From: an uncultured Chromatiales bacterium
GTDB lineage: Bacteria; Pseudomonadota; Gammaproteobacteria; DATFLL01
Length of the DNA: 64,000 nucleotides
Direction: 5' to 3'
Assembly (NCBI GenBank): GCA_964561765.1
Contig: CAZLQI010000009.1
Location: 37,266 to 101,265, forward strand
Shown here piece by piece: positions 6,435 to 60,332 of this stretch; within the stretch, counting starts at the first letter, position 1; every line of letters begins with the position of its first letter. The notes under the pieces were generated by a model. It worked only from the letters and a program-made list of their open reading frames with translations. It was not told the DNA's origin and did no database searches. Made by a program: the position numbers and the translations under genes.

Positions 6435-7667
6435 ATGCCGCAAGTCCCAATGCTTCACGTGAACGCCGTGGCTGCCAATACCCAGAGTGGAGCGCCGGGC
6501 CCCAGCCCGGGGACGTCCGGTGAGGTGAGCGGCCAGGACCCGTCCGCAGGTCATGATGTGCGCGCCGACGGGGGGTTTCACACGGCACTCAAAGGGGTGA
6601 AGAAACAGAGTGATGGTGTGAAAAAGCCGGGCAGCGAACTAAAAAAACAAAATGATGGCCGGGATACGGGGCCGGCATCCACCGCCGGGTCGATGCCGAC
6701 CCATCCGGATACAAAAACCGCCCCGACTGCTCTCGCAGGCAGCATATCAGGTGCTGTCGTCGGGAAAAAATCGACCGATCACGGCAAATTTCAGCCGCCC
6801 TTCCTGCCCTGGACCCTGCCGGTGGAGGCACGCGCCGGGCACATCGGCCTTGTTGCCGACCCCGATTCTGCCATGACAGCATCGGGGCAGGGTCGTCTGC
6901 CGCCAAGCCTGGCGGCCCTCCTGCGACACCCTGGTGCCAATCCCGGTGCCAATCCCGGTGCTGCTCTGGGCACTGGCCCCAAGGCAATTGCGGGTAAAGA
7001 GGGCGATTTTCTGCGCAAAGTGTTTTCCGCGCTCCACAAGCAAGACCCTCCGGGGACCGCCCTCGATCAGACGTTGCTCGCGCGTTTGGCTGTTGATCCA
7101 GCGACCACGAAGGCACTGCTTGGCGGTGGTGCCAGTCCGGCTCAGCTCATGCTCGCTGGCGCAGGTCCGGCGGTGCCCCAACTGCCTGGGGCCACTGTGA
7201 CTCCTGCCGGGCTGATTATCCCGCAGCCGGTTCAGCATCCCGGCTGGTCGCAGGCACTGGGTGAACGGGTGCAGTGGATGCTGGGACAGAACATGCAAAG
7301 CGCGTACATCCGCCTCAATCCACCGGGTCTTGGCCCCCTGGAGGTGCGCATTCTCATCCAAGGTGATCAGACCAGCGTGCAGTTCATTACCCATCACACA
7401 CAAGTACACGATGCCCTGGAGGCTTCGTTGCCGCGTCTGCGGGATATGCTCGGCAATCAGGGCATGCAGTTGGGTAATCTCAATGTCAACGTCTCCGCCC
7501 ATCCTTTCTCCGGATATACGCCGTCGCACGGTGGCGCGGGTCAGGGCCAGGGTGGCTATGGGGGTGGTGCCCATGCGGGTTTCAACGCCGACGATACCGC
7601 CAGTGTGTTGGTGGGGGCCGTCGGGCTGCGACAGCTCGGGCTGAGCATGCTGGATGTGTATGCCTGA
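6435..7667 (+). CDS. fliK: flagellar hook-length control protein FliK
   Basis: Pro/Ala/Gly-rich N-terminal part and a conserved Flg_hook C-terminal domain (QWMLGQNMQSAYIRLNPPGLGPLEVRILIQGDQTSVQF...); follows fliJ. Confidence 0.85.
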   Translation: MPQVPMLHVNAVAANTQSGAPGPSPGTSGEVSGQDPSAGHDVRADGGFHTALKGVKKQSDGVKKPGSELKKQNDGRDTGPASTAGSMPTHPDTKTAPTALAGSISGAVVGKKSTDHGKFQPPFLPWTLPVEARAGHIGLVADPDSAMTASGQGRLPPSLAALLRHPGANPGANPGAALGTGPKAIAGKEGDFLRKVFSALHKQDPPGTALDQTLLARLAVDPATTKALLGGGASPAQLMLAGAGPAVPQLPGATVTPAGLIIPQPVQHPGWSQALGERVQWMLGQNMQSAYIRLNPPGLGPLEVRILIQGDQTSVQFITHHTQVHDALEASLPRLRDMLGNQGMQLGNLNVNVSAHPFSGYTPSHGGAGQGQGGYGGGAHAGFNADDTASVLVGAVGLRQLGLSMLDVYA

Positions 7668-12319: not shown

Positions 12320-12497
12320 GTGTCGGAGCGGGTTGTTACCATGAACGTGGATTGCAGGTCTGGAACGGAGACTGCGGTTGTGACGTTATATGCCAGTACC
12401 GTAGGCAGAGTGGGCAAGGTCGGCGAATGTAACCGCAGGGCGTTAACGTGTCCTTCACGGCAGTCGGTTCCAAAGTGGGTATGTTAAAGCCGGGCAC

Positions 12498-13061
12498 GTG
12501 TCTGCCGATAAACTGCTATGGTTCGCGCCGGGGATATGTGCACTGGCGTACTGGCATGGTGAGGGCATTTTCAGCAGTGTTGAGCAAGTCTTACAATCGG
12601 ACAAATTCATGAGCCATACGATTCCAGTCGGGCGCACACGCCACCCCATGTGGTTCTATGAGCGGAACTATGCCCTGTTGCATCGACTCGTACCGGGCGG
12701 ATTGAGTCTGGGTGAGGATGTCCTGCTGGCTGCCCGCGAGAGTGGTCTGTTGCGTTTTCGTGTCGAGGAACAGTGCAAATATACCCTGACGGTTGGCATC
12801 ACTCACGCGTTTAGTGTCCGATCGGCGGCGGTGAACGAGCTGTATTTGCAGGTAAGAATCTATTGTGATGCCAGTGTGGCTGAAGTGATGGGTTATCAGG
12901 GGCATTGGCGATTTCTGCCTACCTATGATTACCCTAATGAAAACATGTTTTTACCCGATGAGAAACGACAAGTCAATTTTCTGCTCTATGAATTATTGTG
13001 CCATTTCATGACGCGAAATCGTCAGTTTGTGGACATGACCGTCGATACTGTAGGTAGCTGA
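12498..13061 (+). CDS. DUF1249 family protein (YqiB-like)
   Basis: RIYCDASVAEVMGYQGHWRFLPTYDYPNENMFLPDEKRQVNFLLYELL aligns with E. coli YqiB ([48 protein letters not shown]); the true start is possibly the Met at 12609. Confidence 0.7.
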   Translation: MSADKLLWFAPGICALAYWHGEGIFSSVEQVLQSDKFMSHTIPVGRTRHPMWFYERNYALLHRLVPGGLSLGEDVLLAARESGLLRFRVEEQCKYTLTVGITHAFSVRSAAVNELYLQVRIYCDASVAEVMGYQGHWRFLPTYDYPNENMFLPDEKRQVNFLLYELLCHFMTRNRQFVDMTVDTVGS

Positions 13062-30504: not shown

Positions 30505-30532
30505 TCAAGGTTTACCCGGTTGCAGTCGATAG
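30505..30532 (+). promoter_or_regulatory. putative sigma-28 promoter TCAAGGTTT-N11-GTCGATAG upstream of motAB
   Basis: Close match to TAAAGTTT-N11-GCCGATAA with correct spacing, about 55 nt upstream of the motA ATG. Confidence 0.5.
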
Positions 30533-40479: not shown

Positions 40480-41637
40480 ATGGCCGAGCAGGACACCGGA
40501 CAGGAACGCACCGAAGAGGCGACCCCGAAACGCCAGCAGGAGGCGCGCGAAAAAGGCCAAATTGCACGTTCGCGTGAACTCAATACCATGTTGTTATTGC
40601 TGGCCGCCGCGGTGGCGGCGTGGAAGCTGGGTCCGCGCATGATTCACGGCCTGCTCGCCATGCTCCATGCGCACCTGAGTCTGACACGCGCCGAGGTCTT
40701 CGATACCCATGCGCTGACCTTGCAGTTACGCGTGGCCCTGCTCCATGCGTTGTCCATCATGACGCCGTTTTTTGTCATCGTTGTGTTGGCGGCCCTGCTG
40801 GCACCGCTGGCCATGGGTGGGTGGGGTTTCAGTGGCGAGGCCATGGCCTTCAAATGGGACAAACTCGATCCGGTCAAGGGGCTCACGCGCGTGTTTGCCT
40901 GGCGGGGCCTAGTGGAGTTGATCAAGGCGTTGGCGAAATTCATTCTGGTCGGCAGCGTGGCGCTGCTCTTTCTCTACCTCAGCCTGGGGGCGTTGCTGGG
41001 TCTGGGCTATGAGCCGTTACGCCAGGCACTGGGACACACGGGTCATCTCTTTGTGCGGGCCTTCATGGTGTTTTCCGCTGCGCTGATCCTCATTGCCGCG
41101 GCGGATGTCCCCTTCCAGCTCTGGGATTACAAGCGCCAGCTCAAGATGACGCGCCAGGAGATCAAGGATGAGTTCAAACAATCGGAGGGCAGTCCCGAGT
41201 CGAAGGCACGGGTGCGCCGCATGCAACAGGAAATGGCGCAAAGACGCATGATGTCGGAGGTGCCCAAGGCCGATGTCATCGTCACCAATCCGCAACACTA
41301 TGCCGTTGCCCTGCGCTATGACCAGACGAAGATGGCTGCCCCGGTGGTGGTTGCCAAGGGCGCGGATCTGGTGGCGGCAAAGATCCGCGGCATTGCCGCC
41401 AAGGTGAAGGTGCCCATCGTTTCCGCGCCACCGTTGGCCCGCGCGATCTTCCATACCACCGAGATCAATGCCGAGGTGCCGGCGGCCCTGTACATGGCGG
41501 TGGCCCAGGTGCTGGCCTATGTCTTCCAGTTGCGCCAGACCGCCGGAGCAGGCACGTCACGACAAGGCTCAACGCATGCCGCGGAGATACATATGGATGA
41601 TTTGCCGATTCCCGATGACTTGCACTACGACAGTTAA
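40480..41637 (+). CDS. flhB: flagellar export switch protein FlhB
   Basis: Four TM helices plus a cytoplasmic domain with the NPTH autocleavage site (VIVTNPQHYAVAL). Confidence 0.95.
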   Translation: MAEQDTGQERTEEATPKRQQEAREKGQIARSRELNTMLLLLAAAVAAWKLGPRMIHGLLAMLHAHLSLTRAEVFDTHALTLQLRVALLHALSIMTPFFVIVVLAALLAPLAMGGWGFSGEAMAFKWDKLDPVKGLTRVFAWRGLVELIKALAKFILVGSVALLFLYLSLGALLGLGYEPLRQALGHTGHLFVRAFMVFSAALILIAAADVPFQLWDYKRQLKMTRQEIKDEFKQSEGSPESKARVRRMQQEMAQRRMMSEVPKADVIVTNPQHYAVALRYDQTKMAAPVVVAKGADLVAAKIRGIAAKVKVPIVSAPPLARAIFHTTEINAEVPAALYMAVAQVLAYVFQLRQTAGAGTSRQGSTHAAEIHMDDLPIPDDLHYDS

Positions 41638-54753: not shown

Positions 54754-55233
54754 ATGAATCAGGCTGTGGAAACCAACAATGCCCCGCTGAGCCAGTGGGT
54801 GACCTTCCGGCTGGATGCCGAGAAATACGGCATCAATGTCATGAGCGTGCAGGAGGTGCTGCGCATGACCGAGATCGCCCCCGTGCCGGGTGCCCCCGAT
54901 TATGTGCTGGGCATCATCAATTTGCGCGGCAATGTCGTGACGGTGATCGATACCCGCAAGCGCTTTGGACTCAGCGACAAGGAAGCCGATGAGCAGACCC
55001 GTATCGTGATCATCGAGGCCGAGAATCAGGTCGTGGGCATACTGGTCGACAGCGTTGCCGAAGTGGCTGATCTTCAGGGGTCCCAGATCGAGTCGGCACC
55101 CAATGTCGGAAATGATGAAAGCGCCCGGTACATCCAGGGGGTGTCCTCGCAGGAGAGCGAACTTCTGATCCTGATCGATGTGAACAAGTTGCTCTCGGAT
55201 GACGAATGGGAGGAGGTGGCGGCCGCGTTGTAG
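54754..55233 (+). CDS. cheW: chemotaxis coupling protein CheW
   Basis: 159 aa canonical CheW (WVTFRLDAEKYGINVMSVQEVLR...GIINLRGNVVTVID). Confidence 0.9.
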   Translation: MNQAVETNNAPLSQWVTFRLDAEKYGINVMSVQEVLRMTEIAPVPGAPDYVLGIINLRGNVVTVIDTRKRFGLSDKEADEQTRIVIIEAENQVVGILVDSVAEVADLQGSQIESAPNVGNDESARYIQGVSSQESELLILIDVNKLLSDDEWEEVAAAL

Positions 55234-55497: not shown

Positions 55498-55914
55498 ATG
55501 ATGAGCGCACTGTTTTCGCTGACCGACCCCTGGTTACCCGTGGCCGGCGTGGTTACCTCCGTCGTATTGCTGCTGGTGACGCTCGTGGTGCTGAGCGCGG
55601 TCGTGCGCCGTATGCGCCGGCGTCTGTTGCACCAGGATGAGAGGATTTCGGCCCTGCGCCAGGATCTGCGTGCCCTGACCACCGCCGCGGTTGGGGTCGG
55701 TGAGCGGGTACTGGGCGCCGAGCGCCGGCAACGCCGTCTTGCCGAGCGCCAGGACCAGCTCGACCTCTACGATGCCGCCAACCAGCCCTACGAACAGGCC
55801 ATCCGTCTCGTGCACAAGGGGGCCGGTGTCGATGAACTGGTCGATATCTGCGGCCTCAATCTTGGCGAGGCGGAACTTATCCGCATGCTCCACCGGTTAG
55901 ACAAGAGCGCTTGA
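55498..55914 (+). CDS. DUF2802-like small membrane protein (flagellar-cluster associated)
   Basis: N-terminal TM plus a charged coiled-coil; position after cheW as in Pseudomonas; family assignment is from memory. Confidence 0.5.
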   Translation: MMSALFSLTDPWLPVAGVVTSVVLLLVTLVVLSAVVRRMRRRLLHQDERISALRQDLRALTTAAVGVGERVLGAERRQRRLAERQDQLDLYDAANQPYEQAIRLVHKGAGVDELVDICGLNLGEAELIRMLHRLDKSA

Positions 55915-55973
55915 GTTCGTATCGGTGTCGATACCGACCCCTCGGCCCGCGTTGAAGGCGTGGCGGTTCTGCG

Positions 55974-56264
55974 CTAGGGCGTGGTCGCCGGGGGGGGCTC
56001 GCGCCCGCGCACCTGATAGGCAAAGGCAATGATCTCGGCGACCGCCACATACAGCTCATAGGGAATTTCGCTGCCCAGTTCCAGGTGCGACAAGAGCTGT
56101 ACCATCTCCCGATCCTCGCGCAGGGGCACCCCGTGTTCCTCGGCCAGGGCGAGGATCTGTTCGGCGACCAGTCCCGCCCCCTTGGCGGTGACGCGCGGGG
56201 CGCCGCTGCCGTCATAGTGCAGGGCGACGGCGAGGGTCGGTGGCGTGTCCTGTGGTTCATTCAT
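55974..56264 (-). CDS. FlhB C-terminal-domain-like protein (EscU/YscU/HrcU family, soluble)
   Basis: RVTAKGAGLVAEQILALAEEHGVPLREDREMVQLL...IPYELYVAVAEIIAFAY parallels the FlhB cytoplasmic domain in this window (VVAKGADLVAAKIRGIAAKVKVPIVSAPPLARAIF...VPAALYMAVAQVLAYVF). Confidence 0.75.
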   Translation of the reverse strand: MNEPQDTPPTLAVALHYDGSGAPRVTAKGAGLVAEQILALAEEHGVPLREDREMVQLLSHLELGSEIPYELYVAVAEIIAFAYQVRGREPPPATTP

Positions 56265-57589
56265 GCCTTTTCGTTCACCAGACCGGAGGGGGGCGGGGGT
56301 GGGATGTCACTCGGTATGCCGTCCTGGCAACCCAGCCGGCCGACCTGCAGTCCGGCGGTGCCCAGGTGGGTGCGCAAGGTGGCCAACTCGGCGTCGAAAC
56401 GCTGGCGTGTCATGGGCCGTTCGACCCAGAACTGGGCGCTCACCTGGCCATCGTACAGACTGACATGGACGCGTACTGCGCCCAGTTCGCTGAGGTTAAA
56501 GGCCAGGATGACCGACCAGACGGCAGAGCGCGTACTGGTTACCTTCCGCTCACCTGCGTCGCGTTGGATATGCAGCTCGAACAAATCGATCTGTGGTCCG
56601 TTGTGCAGGGGGAGTTCCATGGCCCAGATGGCACGGGTGGCCTCAGCGCTGGATTGGGAGGACTGAGATTGAGATTGGGGCTGGGACTGGATCTGGTGGA
56701 GCTGGATGCGCGCCAGGGCCCCTTCGATCTGCTGGAGCAGTTCATGTCCGGCTGCGCTCGGCGGTAGGGTGGCCAGGGTAGGCGCAGCCTGTGGCTGGGG
56801 ATGCGGCGATGTGCCCCGCAAGGGGGCCGGGGTAACGGCGGGAGGCACAGAGGCAGACTTTGCCTGGGCGCCGGGGAGGGCAGCGGACTGCGGTGGGGTC
56901 GCAGGGGGTTGTGCGCGACTGGCCTGCAAGGTCGCCGCCAGTCGCAGTAGTCCGGCACGCAGATCGCCGCCCAGCAGTTGCGCGGCCTGGCGCTGCAGGC
57001 CGTCGGGCTGGGTGCCTGGCGTCGCGCTCAACAAACGGGCAAGACGACCCTCCAGGAACACGCCGCTGTCCTGCAGGGCCTGTTTCAGGCCATCGGGGTG
57101 ACTGGCCTGTGCACTATCGGGCAGCAGGCGCAGCCATTGCTGCAGCTGTTCGATAACCGGACGGGACAAGGCCGTGGTGAGGCCGGTCGTCGCCGTCTGT
57201 GCCGGACCGGAGCGGGTGCCCGCCGCGCTGTCGGCCAGCAGCCTCAGATTGGCGAGCAGCGGTGCCAGCGAGGTCTGTCGGGGAAGCAGTATCCGCAGGG
57301 CCTGTTCGGCCGGGTTTTTCCTGTCGGTGGCGGTCAGGATGCGCAGAATGGGGGGGTCACTGCGTGGCTGGACGACTTCCAGCCTCAAGTGCTGGCCGAC
57401 CTGCAGCGGGGCCTGGGTGCGGGCCAGGACATGCTGGCGACCCACCGCCAGCACCGCACCTTGGTCGACCAGTCGCAGGACCGTCGCCAGCAGTTTGTCG
57501 CCGGCCTGCCAGGGGCGCGTGTTCAGCGCCTCCGCGCCCGGATTCTGGGACGGCGCGGGTGGTGGCAAGGGTGGGCCGTTAATCTGCAT
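56261..57589 (-). CDS. FliK-like hook-length-control family protein (second copy)
   Basis: Pro/Gln/Ala-rich body with a C-terminal Flg_hook-type domain (VILAFNLSELGAVRVHVSLYDGQVSAQFWVERPMTRQRFDAELATLRTHLGTAGLQVGRL); stop overlaps the FlhB-like start. Confidence 0.7.
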   Translation of the reverse strand: MQINGPPLPPPAPSQNPGAEALNTRPWQAGDKLLATVLRLVDQGAVLAVGRQHVLARTQAPLQVGQHLRLEVVQPRSDPPILRILTATDRKNPAEQALRILLPRQTSLAPLLANLRLLADSAAGTRSGPAQTATTGLTTALSRPVIEQLQQWLRLLPDSAQASHPDGLKQALQDSGVFLEGRLARLLSATPGTQPDGLQRQAAQLLGGDLRAGLLRLAATLQASRAQPPATPPQSAALPGAQAKSASVPPAVTPAPLRGTSPHPQPQAAPTLATLPPSAAGHELLQQIEGALARIQLHQIQSQPQSQSQSSQSSAEATRAIWAMELPLHNGPQIDLFELHIQRDAGERKVTSTRSAVWSVILAFNLSELGAVRVHVSLYDGQVSAQFWVERPMTRQRFDAELATLRTHLGTAGLQVGRLGCQDGIPSDIPPPPPSGLVNEKA

Positions 57590-57764
57590 AGTCCTGAGAA
57601 CCTGACGCTTGGCATTGGCCGTGGTTGTCGGTGTGCTTTATGATGCCAGTATCCCACATCGTAAAGGCCAATAATAATCAATAAGCATAGCCAGTTAGTG
57701 CAGGAACCACAGGCGCGCAACAGACGCTGAACCCGGTGGCGGGTACCCGCAGCGAGGAGGCTCG

Positions 57765-58721
57765 ATGGCACACAATAATCTCTGGTACGTTCGGCGCGGG
57801 CGCACGCTCAAGGGGCCGTTCCCGGCCGGTCTGATCTCGCGTTATATCCTGCTGGAGCGGATTCGTCTGAGTGACGAACTGAGTCAGGATCGCACGACCT
57901 GGAAGCCGGTGAAGGCGTGTGCCGAGTTGATCCCGGAGGTGCTGAAGGCCGATCCGGAGGATGAGGACGCCCAGCGTCGGCTTGAGGCGGCCCGGCGCTG
58001 GGCGGATGAACGGCGTGGGGAGGATCAGCGGGCCTGGGGGGGCGCCGGGGATCAGCCTGGAGAGGTGGCCGAGGTGGCCGAGGTGCGCGATGCGGGCGAG
58101 CGGCGTAGTGCGGAGCGCCGGCGCACGGAGTCGGAGGAGCAGGCCCAGTTCCGCCAGATCCATCAGCGCTTGATCGGGGCAGCGCACCAGAAGCAGCACT
58201 ACCTGTTGCAGTTGTCGATGATCCTCATCGTGGTGGCGGTGGTCATCGGTGCGGCCATGTATTACACACCGAGCAAGACGATAAATACGGCGGACTGCAC
58301 GGCGCCGCCGGGCCTTGGGGTCAACTGGAGCAATTGCAGGTTACAGGGTATTCAGGTGCCGGGGAAAGATCTGCGCGGGGCACATCTCAATAGCACTGAT
58401 GCCTCGGGTAGTGACCTCGCCGGTACCAATTTGCGCCAGGCGGTGTTGTCCTACGCCGATCTGAGTCTCGCCAATCTGCGGGGTGCCGATCTGCGTGACG
58501 CACAGTTGGTCGGTACCAATCTGCGCCGGGCCAATCTGGCCCAGGCAGATCTGCGCCGAGCCAATCTTACCTATGCCGATCTCACCGGTGCCCGCCTGAC
58601 GGGAGCGCAGTTGCAGGGCGCACGCCTGGATCACGCCATCTGGGTGGATGGTCAGACCTGTCAGCCGGGCTCGTTGGGGCGTTGCCTGACCGGGGTCCCC
58701 GCCGTGCCGCCCGTTCGTTAG
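57765..58721 (+). CDS. GYF-like (DUF4339) domain - TM - pentapeptide-repeat protein
   Basis: N-terminal WYVRRGRTLKGPFPAGLISRYILLERIRLSDELSQD (DUF4339/GYF-like), Arg/Glu-rich linker, TM helix, then about 14 A(D/N)LxG pentapeptide repeats. Confidence 0.75.
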   Translation: MAHNNLWYVRRGRTLKGPFPAGLISRYILLERIRLSDELSQDRTTWKPVKACAELIPEVLKADPEDEDAQRRLEAARRWADERRGEDQRAWGGAGDQPGEVAEVAEVRDAGERRSAERRRTESEEQAQFRQIHQRLIGAAHQKQHYLLQLSMILIVVAVVIGAAMYYTPSKTINTADCTAPPGLGVNWSNCRLQGIQVPGKDLRGAHLNSTDASGSDLAGTNLRQAVLSYADLSLANLRGADLRDAQLVGTNLRRANLAQADLRRANLTYADLTGARLTGAQLQGARLDHAIWVDGQTCQPGSLGRCLTGVPAVPPVR

Positions 58722-58747: not shown

Positions 58748-59320
58748 TCAGTCGACCGTCTCCACCGTGTAGCTCGCAATGTGCAGCGTATCAGACCAGT
58801 AGTCGGCGGGCAGACCGGCCTTGCGTTTGAGCGCCTGTATGAACTGCGCGGGATCGGGCAGGCTGCTCCAGACCGAGGGCAGGAAAGTGGCGCGATGTGC
58901 CCGATCTTCGAGGATGAGTCCATCGATGCCGGGTCGCAACCGTGCGCATAGTGTGGCCTCGTTGGGCACCGTCAGCACGTGCGGTGGCTGAAGTATTGAG
59001 ATGTGCAGGTGCAGTTCGGCGCGTTCGGTGGTGGTGAGCGGGTTGAAACGCGGATCACGAAAGGCCGCGGCATAGGCATTGTCACTGACATCGTGCGCCA
59101 GGGGACGGCAGGCCTCCAGGCTGCCGATGCAGCCGCGCAGTGCGTCGTGCAGGGTCAGAGTGACAAAACTGGCACGCCAGGCCTGCAGGGCGGATGGGCA
59201 GGTCGTGCTGTCGAGTGCGGGAGGATGGCCGGTATGCAGACCCTGATCGATGGCCTGGGTAGCCAGGGTCAGTAGGGTGTGGCGGTCAGCGGTGCTCAGC
59301 AGGATGTGATGAGGGTTCAT
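58748..59320 (-). CDS. amrA: AmmeMemoRadiSam system protein A (AMMECR1 domain)
   Basis: AMMECR1 core (ASFVTLTLHDALRGCIGSLEACRPL...); adjacent to MEMO1 and radical-SAM partners. Confidence 0.85.
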   Translation of the reverse strand: MNPHHILLSTADRHTLLTLATQAIDQGLHTGHPPALDSTTCPSALQAWRASFVTLTLHDALRGCIGSLEACRPLAHDVSDNAYAAAFRDPRFNPLTTTERAELHLHISILQPPHVLTVPNEATLCARLRPGIDGLILEDRAHRATFLPSVWSSLPDPAQFIQALKRKAGLPADYWSDTLHIASYTVETVD

Positions 59321-60159
59321 GAAGGCGGCAGGGCGTCAGTGTGGCCCTCCCCCGAAGACACCGCCCAGAAGGCGAAGGCGCCATAGCCGACGACACGATC
59401 CTGTGGCCCGGCGGTATCGCCGGAGTTGCGCAGGTCCAGTGTCCGGGCCTGTAGCCCGTGTTGTCGGGCGAAATACAACAGCCCGTTGATGGGGTCACGG
59501 CCGCAGGCGTCCTCATAGCCGATGGTCTCCGGGTGCAGCTGTTCGATAGCACTGGCAGTGGCCTGATCGCGCCAGCGGGCCGTCTCATAGTCGTGGTAGT
59601 GGCTCAGATCGGAGCTGATGACGATCAGGGTTTCCGCTCCGCCCCATACCCTCTCCAGTACCTGTGCGACTGCGCCCGGTTCGGCCCTGCCCACCACCAG
59701 CGGTACCAGCGTGCATTCACCCAGCACCACCTGCAGGAAAGGCAGGTGCACCTCCAGACTGTGTTCCAGCGCATGGGCTTCATCGAACGGATGTACCTGG
59801 GGCAGGGTGAGTAACCGATCCAGGGTCGCCCGGTCGAGGGTTATGGCGCCCAGCGGTGTGTCGAAGGCGCTGGCGCTGCTCGTGGCCAGGCCTGAAAATG
59901 ACACCCGATGCGCCGGGCCGAGCAGAACCACACGCTTGACCGTGCCGCGCAGAGGACGCAGGCGCACATAGGCGCTGGCCGCGACCGGCCCGGAATAGAT
60001 ATACCCGGCATGTGGTGCAATGATGGCCTTAGGTGGTGCTGTATCATCGTGCACCACCGCGTGTAAATAGCCTTCCACCGCACTTTGCAGTGCCTGTGCC
60101 TCTTCGGGATAGAACAGGCCAGCGACGGCAGGGGGGCGTACACAGGTGTGGCTGGACAT
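59317..60159 (-). CDS. amrB: AmmeMemoRadiSam system protein B (MEMO1 family)
   Basis: MEMO1 signature (RPPAVAGLFYPEE..., IIAPHAGYIYSGPVAA, ISSDLSHYH); start at MSSHTC. Confidence 0.85.
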   Translation of the reverse strand: MSSHTCVRPPAVAGLFYPEEAQALQSAVEGYLHAVVHDDTAPPKAIIAPHAGYIYSGPVAASAYVRLRPLRGTVKRVVLLGPAHRVSFSGLATSSASAFDTPLGAITLDRATLDRLLTLPQVHPFDEAHALEHSLEVHLPFLQVVLGECTLVPLVVGRAEPGAVAQVLERVWGGAETLIVISSDLSHYHDYETARWRDQATASAIEQLHPETIGYEDACGRDPINGLLYFARQHGLQARTLDLRNSGDTAGPQDRVVGYGAFAFWAVSSGEGHTDALPPS

Positions 60160-60332
60160 AGCGGAAACTTCCGACACAGACCGATGAGGGTCTCAGAGGC
60201 AAGTATAGCGTGCGGTGCTGATCGGCGATGGGTCGGGTGACGGGCGGGTCGATGTGCCGGTAGGGTCGGCGTCGCTGAACTATGCTTGATCTATCGGTTT
60301 GCGGAATCAAGGTGCCAGGAGGGGCGGCGACA

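Follow-up and report, generated by a model that had tools for sequence, protein, structure and literature searches.

The DNA analyzed here, 64,000 nucleotides (nt) from an uncultured Chromatiales bacterium (contig CAZLQI010000009.1, positions 37,266 to 101,265; this whole stretch is called the window in what follows), carries two overlapping minus-strand genes at the end of its chemotaxis gene cluster. One of them codes for a paralogue of FliK, the other for a small soluble protein which is similar to FlhB's C-terminal domain. A comparison of protein sequences and gene order makes it close to certain that these two genes are orthologous to fliK2 and flhX, which form an operon in Pseudomonas putida, and we use these gene names. 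The best explanation that we can offer is that fliK2-flhX forms an accessory module which exchanges or modulates FlhB-CC, the polypeptide released by FlhB autocleavage; we give this reading a probability of about 0.55. The pair is not new: It has already been named as an operon, and FlhX has long been known as the TIGR00789 'FlhB-related' group. Our additions are the counts of coupled genes, the extension of the pairing to Alphaproteobacteria and Clostridia, the start and the pocket of FlhX, the predicted fold of FliK2 and a motif in its C-terminal tail. The pair consists of:

56261..57589, minus strand: fliK2, an open reading frame with an ATG start, coding for a FliK paralogue of 442 amino acids (aa) with a Flg_hook (PF02120) match
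55974..56264, minus strand: flhX, an open reading frame coding for a 96 aa free-standing FlhB-CC/CCD homologue with a partial PF01312 match
56261..56264, minus strand: the sequence ATGA, in which the TGA stop of fliK2 overlaps the ATG start of flhX

FliK2 starts with MQINGPP, as do its homologues, and an AAGG is found 5 bases upstream of the flhX ATG. The overlap had been noticed in the sequence-only reading, an earlier description of this DNA, and we confirm it; the two genes can be considered to be translationally coupled through it. The genes to which the pair must be related in the window are:

54754..55233, convergent with flhX-fliK2: cheW, found by Pfam scan
55498..55914, plus strand: gene for a DUF2802 protein, FlrD-like, the last gene of the flhA...cheW operon (PF10975, E = 9e-21)
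40480..41637, plus strand: canonical full-length flhB, our comparator for flhX (PF01312 over its full length, 420 bits)
6435..7667, plus strand: canonical fliK, our comparator for fliK2 (PF02120, 82.7 bits)

The polar-flagellum operon of the window has the order flhB, flhA, flhF, fleN, fliA, cheY/Z/A/B, motCD, parC, parP, cheW, followed by the DUF2802 gene. The flhX-fliK2 pair converges on cheW-DUF2802, where the flhA...cheW operon ends, which is the position that the sequence-only reading had given to it; the canonical fliK and flhB that it mentioned are also there. Since both canonical genes are present in the window, fliK2-flhX is an addition and not a replacement. No second set of export-gate genes is evident in the 64-kb window. 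The 59 nt gap between the DUF2802 gene and flhX (55915..55973) contains a short inverted repeat, GTATCG-ACAC-CGATAC, on which the terminator scan is silent because there is no T-run.

In P. putida, PP_4328 has been named fliK2 and PP_4329 flhX; the two make up one class IV operon which depends on FliA and borders the flagellar cluster, close to flrD (PP_4331), and the authors describe the function of fliK2 as uncharacterised and the role of FlhX as poorly understood (Leal-Morales et al., bioRxiv 10.1101/2021.08.29.457346). The Pseudomonas pair was first noted in 2016 (PMC5026340), and comparative studies count FlhX among the flagellar export components (PMC9321776, PMC10746217). We have not found a functional study of the fliK2-flhX pair in the literature searched. 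The window pair agrees with that of Pseudomonas in both domain types, gene order and co-directional adjacency, and in P. putida, too, it converges on the end of the flhA operon formed by cheW and flrD, with PP_4331, called the flrD orthologue, at the place of the DUF2802 gene. The synteny of P. fluorescens is the same as that of the window: cheA, cheB, motCD, parC, parP, cheW, DUF2802 and then the convergent flhX and fliK2. The conservation of the pair near cheW in related bacteria, proposed as a check in the sequence-only reading, is seen in P. fluorescens, and cheW is present in 35 of the 85 loci described below. The 524 aa 'FliK' proteins encoded beside flhX in Pseudomonas match the window FliK2 with E ~1e-14 over 61-65% of the query, and the alignment reaches beyond Flg_hook, through the helical-bundle motifs. 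In P. aeruginosa the pair is annotated as 'flagellar hook-length control protein FliK' and 'EscU/YscU/HrcU family ... switch protein'. According to gene coordinates, P. fluorescens and P. aeruginosa have the same overlap as the window.

There are also differences. The Pseudomonas protein has 524 aa and additional N-terminal sequence, while FliK2 of the window has 442 aa. The upstream neighbour is a pentapeptide-repeat gene in the window and ccm genes in Pseudomonas. Dependence on FliA has been shown for P. putida, while the window fliK2 has only a weak sigma-28-like match. Two other uses of the name were considered and set aside: The 'fliK2' of Vibrio alginolyticus is the FliK of the lateral system, a different gene, and in the available part of a paper on MakA of V. 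cholerae, fliK2 does not appear as a gene name.

FlhX matches Bac_export_2 (PF01312) only at profile positions 258-334 of 335, with E = 5e-19, far beyond chance. The proposal that it is a homologue of the FlhB C-domain therefore stands, and the profile searches suggested for both proteins (PF02120 and PF01312) give significant matches. FlhX has 40% identity to aa 270-352 of the window FlhB and aligns with the crystallised Salmonella FlhB-CC chain 3b0z_B (E = 2e-14); the transmembrane N-terminal part is missing. Its 96 aa are within the ~80-110 aa of the small FlhB-related proteins of TIGR00789 (flhB_rel, 'FlhB-like flagellar biosynthesis protein'), which is its top NCBIfam model (84.7 bits). 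Such small proteins are labelled by the sources as 'EscU/YscU/HrcU family type III secretion system export apparatus switch protein'. The top match of FlhX in the genome collection has 70% identity, and a protein with 99% identity to FliK2 is encoded on an NCBI contig of 65 kb. It co-occurs with a full-length FlhB, which is found in the same window with 420 bits.

A characteristic feature of FlhX is its N-terminus. Residues T7-P8-P9-T10 are aligned to N-P-Q-H in the window FlhB and to N-P-T-H in the Salmonella protein, and the catalytic Asn of FlhB is a Thr in FlhX. The absence of the transmembrane region and of NPTH, already noted from the sequence, is therefore confirmed, with TPPT at the cleavage position. 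When FlhX is aligned to full-length Salmonella FlhB, P8 corresponds to P270, the first residue of autocleaved FlhB-CC. None of the members of our 40-sequence FlhX alignment has NPTH; these proteins start about 10 variable residues ahead of the conserved block LAVAL.YDG.GAPRVTAKG. As FlhX starts at the cleavage position and has lost the motif, it is encoded 'pre-cleaved'. We may thus describe it as a soluble equivalent of the FlhB-CC polypeptide. The canonical FlhB of the window is itself slightly unusual: Its autocleavage site (aa 269-272) is N-P-Q-H instead of the usual N-P-T-H.

Residues A286, P287, A341 and L344 of FlhB form a hydrophobic pocket on the surface of FlhB-CCD which recognises early substrates (PMC9307174). 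They are aligned to A22, P23, A76 and I79 of FlhX. The first three are invariant in the 40-sequence alignment, and the position of I79 is either Ile or Leu. FlhX thus retains the docking pocket for early (rod/hook-type) substrates.

A similar protein is known in Helicobacter pylori. Its FlhX (HP1575) is reported to be a 'spare part' homologue of FlhB-CC (Wand et al. 2006; Smith et al. 2009, as cited in later work), and it is cited as partially replacing FlhB function (bioRxiv 10.1101/2021.08.29.457346). The identity between PP_4329 and HP1575 is 34% (same preprint). Both the window FlhX and the H. pylori protein are small soluble homologues of the processed FlhB C-terminal subdomain, found beside a full-length FlhB; with respect to the H. 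pylori work, the new element is the gene for a partner with a T3S4 domain.

In this partner, FliK2, the Flg_hook (PF02120) match spans aa 347-426 and scores 64.5 bits, above the cutoff of 29.8 (E = 8e-18). Pro makes up 10.4% and Gln 10.2% of the protein, so that its description as a Pro/Gln-rich FliK-like protein of 442 aa is correct. Its fold has been predicted with AlphaFold2 on a shallow alignment of 40 sequences. The mean predicted local distance difference test (pLDDT) score is 79.3, the predicted template modelling (pTM) score is 0.72, and 334 of the 442 residues have a pLDDT of at least 70. The parts of the predicted protein are:

FliK2 aa 1-22: disordered (AlphaFold2)
57326..57496, minus strand: FliK2 aa 32-88, predicted five-stranded OB/S1-like beta-barrel (AlphaFold2, Foldseek)
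56912..57313, minus strand: FliK2 aa 93-226, predicted helical bundle (AlphaFold2, pLDDT mostly 86-96)
56762..56911, minus strand: FliK2 aa 227-276, Pro/Ala-rich linker of low confidence (AlphaFold2, composition)
56321..56761, minus strand: FliK2 aa 277-423, long helix followed by the T3S4/Flg_hook alpha-beta domain (Pfam, AlphaFold2, Foldseek)
56264..56281, minus strand: C-terminal tail L-V-N-E-K-A of FliK2 (position-wise counts in 75 homologues)

The predicted strands of the barrel are 32-41, 44-49, 52-57, 67-74 and 81-88, with pLDDT ~78-85, and the motif W..GQ.L.A.V...G...L..G...A.T..PL..GQ.L.L.V is conserved across the FliK2 alignment in this region. The family motifs of the bundle are LPRQ..L.PLLANL, GLKQA..SGVFLE and DLKA.LLRL; in SGVFLE, G176 and E180 are invariant among the 40 sequences and F178 is nearly so. 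The linker has 14 Pro per 50 residues, and its pLDDT falls to 46-49 at aa 236-248. It is the only block of variable length in the family, whose members have from 257 to 659 aa, a range which includes some open reading frames cut by contig ends. The long helix (aa 277-302) carries the motif LARIQL.QL, and the T3S4 domain (aa 320-423) is predicted with strands in 320-389, a helix in 392-411 and a final strand in 415-423, all with pLDDT 92-95. Foldseek only gives matches to PDB entries at the level of domains: The C-terminal domain matches the C-terminal domain of FliK (2rrl) and the switch domain of PscP (5cuk), the barrel matches S1/OB folds.

Pfam gives nothing consistent for the module formed by aa 1-235, with 40 members scanned and E up to 1. 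On the other hand, when this module (56885..57589, minus strand) was used as a single-sequence query against 1.84 billion cluster representatives, 437 clusters at 50% identity were found with E <= 1e-3, and 80 with E <= 1e-10. Most of them are proteins of 360-570 aa in which the match is N-terminal. Some FliK2 homologues, including those of Pseudomonas, appear to carry an additional N-terminal copy of the barrel motif. The model predicts that the N-terminal two thirds of FliK2 are a folded OB-barrel and helical bundle, with no disordered tape measure.

The C-terminal tail deserves attention. In Salmonella, FliK cannot engage FlhB-CCD without its last five residues (PMC13344023). In 75 FliK2 homologues the tail follows the motif L-[LIV]-D-x-x-[AV]-COOH, which resembles the LDVYA with which the canonical FliK of the window ends. 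This likeness of the two protein ends is suggestive. The canonical protein has a Gly/Ala/Pro-rich N-terminal part of 270 aa, a T3S4 domain at aa 277-354 and a tail of 56 aa, while FliK2 has only 16 residues after its T3S4 domain.

The contact between FliK and FlhB-CCD in Salmonella thus has counterparts on both sides in the window pair: the two domain families, the residues equivalent to the pocket in FlhX, the T3S4 fold in FliK2 and the hydrophobic-Asp-x-x-Ala type of C-terminus, as in the canonical FliK of the window. FlhX differs from Salmonella FlhB in being separately encoded, with neither FlhB-CN, nor the membrane domain, nor NPTH. FliK2 differs from Salmonella FliK in that the long disordered ruler is missing from the predicted structure.

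The sequence-only reading had proposed that the pair is a second module for ruler and switch. In such a case FliK2 would be exported through the flagellar channel, measure length, and flip FlhX as a second receptor. Both partners are in fact domain paralogues of the canonical ones, the 22 disordered N-terminal residues could be an export signal, and the length of the Pro/Ala-rich linker differs among homologues. Nevertheless, most of FliK2 is predicted as folded at high confidence, its domain packing is also predicted with confidence (pTM 0.72), and the linker has only ~50 residues. The ruler is unsupported because an OB-like barrel and a bundle are predicted in the place of the long disordered measuring region of FliK. 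As FlhX lacks both a membrane anchor and FlhB-CN, it cannot by itself be part of a gate, and the window shows no second set of genes for an export gate. We consider a true second ruler very improbable. What remains of the earlier proposal is an extra, coupled pair of paralogues of the two switch partners; the regulatory or decoy role which it also suggested for them is plausible.

In order to see how general the pairing is, we have collected 85 flhX loci: 80 from representatives with one genome per species, through the FlhX alignment, and 5 from look-ups of exact proteins. The 80 loci are all from Gammaproteobacteria, including Thiohalomonadaceae, Ectothiorhodospiraceae, Chromatiales, Methylococcales, Competibacterales and Zhongshania. 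With a hidden Markov model built from FliK2 homologues, fliK2 is recognised in 78 of these 85 loci. The stop/start overlap of 4 nt is present in 68 of these 78 loci, as ATGA except for three with GTGA or TTGA, and in 7 more the spacing is between -14 and +1 nt. In one locus two genes are inserted between fliK2 and flhX, and one FlhX is located at a contig edge. The neighbouring genes include DUF2802 in 36 loci and cheW in 35. These data practically eliminate the idea that the pair are decaying duplicates without function: Intact open reading frames, motifs and the overlap are kept in dozens of species across classes, and the 437 clusters which carry the N-terminal module specific to FliK2 already contradict it. 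The only point in its favour is that the literature searched gives no phenotype for the pair.

In six loci from Methylobacter/Methylococcales (L039, L059, L063, L069, L076 and L084), flhX is flanked by open reading frames of 129 aa and 286 aa, which by eye are QueF-like and phosphatidylserine decarboxylase-like, respectively. It overlaps the downstream gene by 4 nt, and no FliK2-like gene is found nearby, within the 10-kb locus.

The pairing is also found in more distant groups. Bosea and a second alphaproteobacterial genome have fliK2-flhX with the same overlap, outside flagellar clusters. Three genomes of Clostridia contain a gene for a protein of 607-847 aa whose C-terminal domain is Flg_hook and which in two cases also has DUF6240, followed by a gene for a FlhB-CC homologue of 92-102 aa (L090, 2425..5258; L091, 2399..5279; L092, 3124..5309); flagellin comes after FlhX in two of the three. 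In Acetoanaerobium, an 847 aa protein with DUF6240 and a C-terminal Flg_hook domain (28.6 bits, slightly below the cutoff) is followed after 2 nt by a 95 aa FlhB-CC homologue, flagellin and fliS, and the arrangement in Criibacterium is nearly identical. In the third genome, the order is ribosomal protein L19, GTPase, RNase HII, a 607 aa Flg_hook protein and FlhX. The Firmicute pair thus resembles that of the window, since here, too, a small FlhB-CC homologue comes directly after a large protein with Flg_hook at its C-terminus; it differs in that the genes are 2-58 nt apart instead of overlapping. The upstream order L19-GTPase-RNase HII resembles the ylqG-ylqH neighbourhood of Bacillus subtilis, and the Firmicute pair is probably ylqG-ylqH. 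Homology between the N-terminal parts of FliK2 and its Clostridial counterpart was looked for and discarded: A profile comparison aligned the C-terminal domain only, with E = 0.026 and low probability. A linked 'flhX-fliK' has also been mentioned for Nitratiruptor (PMC9321776). Because of the cases in Alphaproteobacteria, Clostridia and Nitratiruptor, the association of FlhX with a T3S4-domain protein can be called old and widespread.

One of the records, L089 (NZ_CP133752.1), is described as a 180 kb 'plasmid' of P. aeruginosa, pZYPA1927, which carries ccmA-F and fliK2-flhX. We take this gene arrangement to be chromosomal in P. aeruginosa, and the record may be a chromosomal fragment.

The region upstream of fliK2 in the window is common to this gene and to its divergent neighbour:

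57590..57764, minus strand: region which is upstream of both fliK2 and the divergent pentapeptide-repeat gene (sequence)

The best sigma-28-like site in it is TAAAG-N16-GCCAATGC (~57611..57639), which scores 10/13 and has an atypical spacing; canonical sigma-28 sites elsewhere in the window score 11-13/13. No sigma-70-like site is found on the minus strand upstream of fliK2, and inspection by eye of the same region finds no sigma-54 site with GG-N10-GC spacing. Among related loci, sigma-28-like sites of at least 11/13 are found upstream of fliK2 in 21% of cases, as compared to 1% of shuffles. Late expression of the window pair is plausible. As for other sites of this kind, a perfect sigma-28 consensus, TAAAG-N14-GCCGATAA, is found at 12485..12511 (plus strand), and 11/13 matches are found at 30505 (plus), 30461 (minus) and 46818 (plus), the latter just past fliA.

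Late expression would suit a pair which acts as a cytoplasmic sink or decoy. FlhX would sequester leftover early substrates or canonical FliK, and the T3S4 domain of FliK2 would cap free or ejected FlhB-CC, so that the switch is sharpened and switched gates are protected while FlhX never binds to FlhB. The conserved pocket residues (PMC9307174), the FliA-dependent operon of P. putida (bioRxiv 10.1101/2021.08.29.457346) and the enrichment of sigma-28-like sites (21% at >= 11/13 versus 1% of shuffles) agree with this, and a 1:1 coupling fits a stoichiometric binder. However, H. pylori FlhX is reported to substitute for FlhB-CC and can therefore dock at the gate, and a sink has no obvious need for a partner with a large conserved OB and helical module. 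We consider this explanation unlikely.

The reading that we prefer, an accessory module which exchanges or modulates FlhB-CC, starts from recent results on the switch. FlhB-CCD is needed for the export of early substrates and keeps the gate in early mode; FliK promotes the removal of FlhB-CCD, and the late mode is then locked (PMC13344023). FliK2 and FlhX would be made in roughly matched amounts and would form a cytoplasmic complex between T3S4 and FlhX, which mirrors the contact between FliK-C and FlhB-CC. This complex would serve the single polar export gate as an accessory, not as a second ruler. At the FlhB-CN site FlhX would serve as a 'spare' CC domain which can be exchanged, a role reported for the H. 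pylori protein, and its docking would restore or prolong the state in which early substrates are docked. FliK2 would bind, deliver or remove FlhX, and so govern the exchange. The net effect might be either to re-arm gates or to buffer the switch.

Several observations speak against this explanation. Adjacency to fliK2 is not obligatory, as shown by the solitary flhX of the six Methylobacter-type loci, which has queF-like and psd-like genes on its two sides. The 22 N-terminal residues of FliK2 are disordered and its linker varies in length, so that secretion or some spacer function is possible. The 84.7 bits of FlhX are below the curated cutoff of TIGR00789 (117.35). Finally, the sigma-28 match of the window fliK2 is weak, and its late expression is extrapolated from P. 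putida.

A different division of labour may also be considered: FliK2 as a non-secreted switch factor of the HpaC type, acting on the genuine FlhB C-domain, for example at gates without the normal hook signal, with FlhX as a cognate inhibitor which masks the T3S4 domain. In Xanthomonas, HpaC is described as a type III secretion control protein which binds HrcU-C (PMC3040844, PMC2427183). The analogy is one of function: In both cases a control protein would bind the C-domain of a member of the FlhB family and shift substrate specificity. HpaC belongs to another secretion system, an injectisome, and its homology to FliK2 is limited to weak HpaP T3S4 family matches, in 12 of 40 FliK2 members. We know of no free-standing HrcU-CC partner. 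A T3S4 domain and a FliK-like tail on a body predicted to be folded agree with this possibility, and translational coupling is typical of inhibitor-target pairs. On the other hand, the switch would be expected to be the task of the canonical FliK, which is present, and the stand-alone flhX of Methylobacter-type loci argues for a role of FlhX on its own. This alternative appears to us rather improbable.

The divergent neighbour of fliK2 is the following gene:

57765..58721, plus strand: pentapeptide-repeat protein, 318 aa (Pfam Pentapeptide, E = 3.5e-27)

The protein has an N-terminal 'WYVRRG..GPF' motif, and the repeats are at approximately aa 187-295. Homologues with 31-66% identity, mostly over the full length, are found divergently upstream of fliK2 in 47 of the 85 loci, which makes this neighbour more common than DUF2802 (36) or cheW (35). 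In the alphaproteobacterial locus L087 a pentapeptide protein is found two genes from the pair. Pseudomonas has no pentapeptide gene at this place, where ccm genes are found. In this lineage the module may also include the pentapeptide-repeat protein, as a third component. Past it, on the minus strand (58748..60177), there is a gene for AmmeMemoRadiSam system protein A (TIGR04335, 194.6 bits), adjoined by a 286 aa open reading frame whose stop overlaps the start of that gene. Both appear unrelated to motility, but homologues of them are found in 25-27 of the 85 loci.

How export switches from hook to filament is one of the classic problems in the study of flagella. A 2026 study has proposed that the switch consists in the FliK-driven ejection of the cleaved FlhB C-domain (PMC13344023). 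Many flagellated bacteria, the present one among them, encode a free copy of the ejected domain, coupled to a dedicated T3S4 protein, and this pair makes two questions tractable: Is the ejected domain replaceable, and can T3S4 domains act without being secreted? The pair is well suited to experiments, given its intact pocket, its conserved tail, its coupling across phyla and the ejection model of 2026. A more ambitious proposal, which we regard as doubtful, is that a T3S4 protein and FlhX form an ancient cross-phylum module through which the specificity switch of the flagellum can be reversed or repaired. FlhX would reload FlhB-CN after the FliK-driven ejection of FlhB-CC and return the gate to early mode, and FliK2, which would not pass through the channel but be anchored by its folded N-terminal module, would control loading and removal. 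If this were true, the 2026 model, in which the removal of FlhB-CCD is irreversible (PMC13344023), would gain a 'reset' arm.

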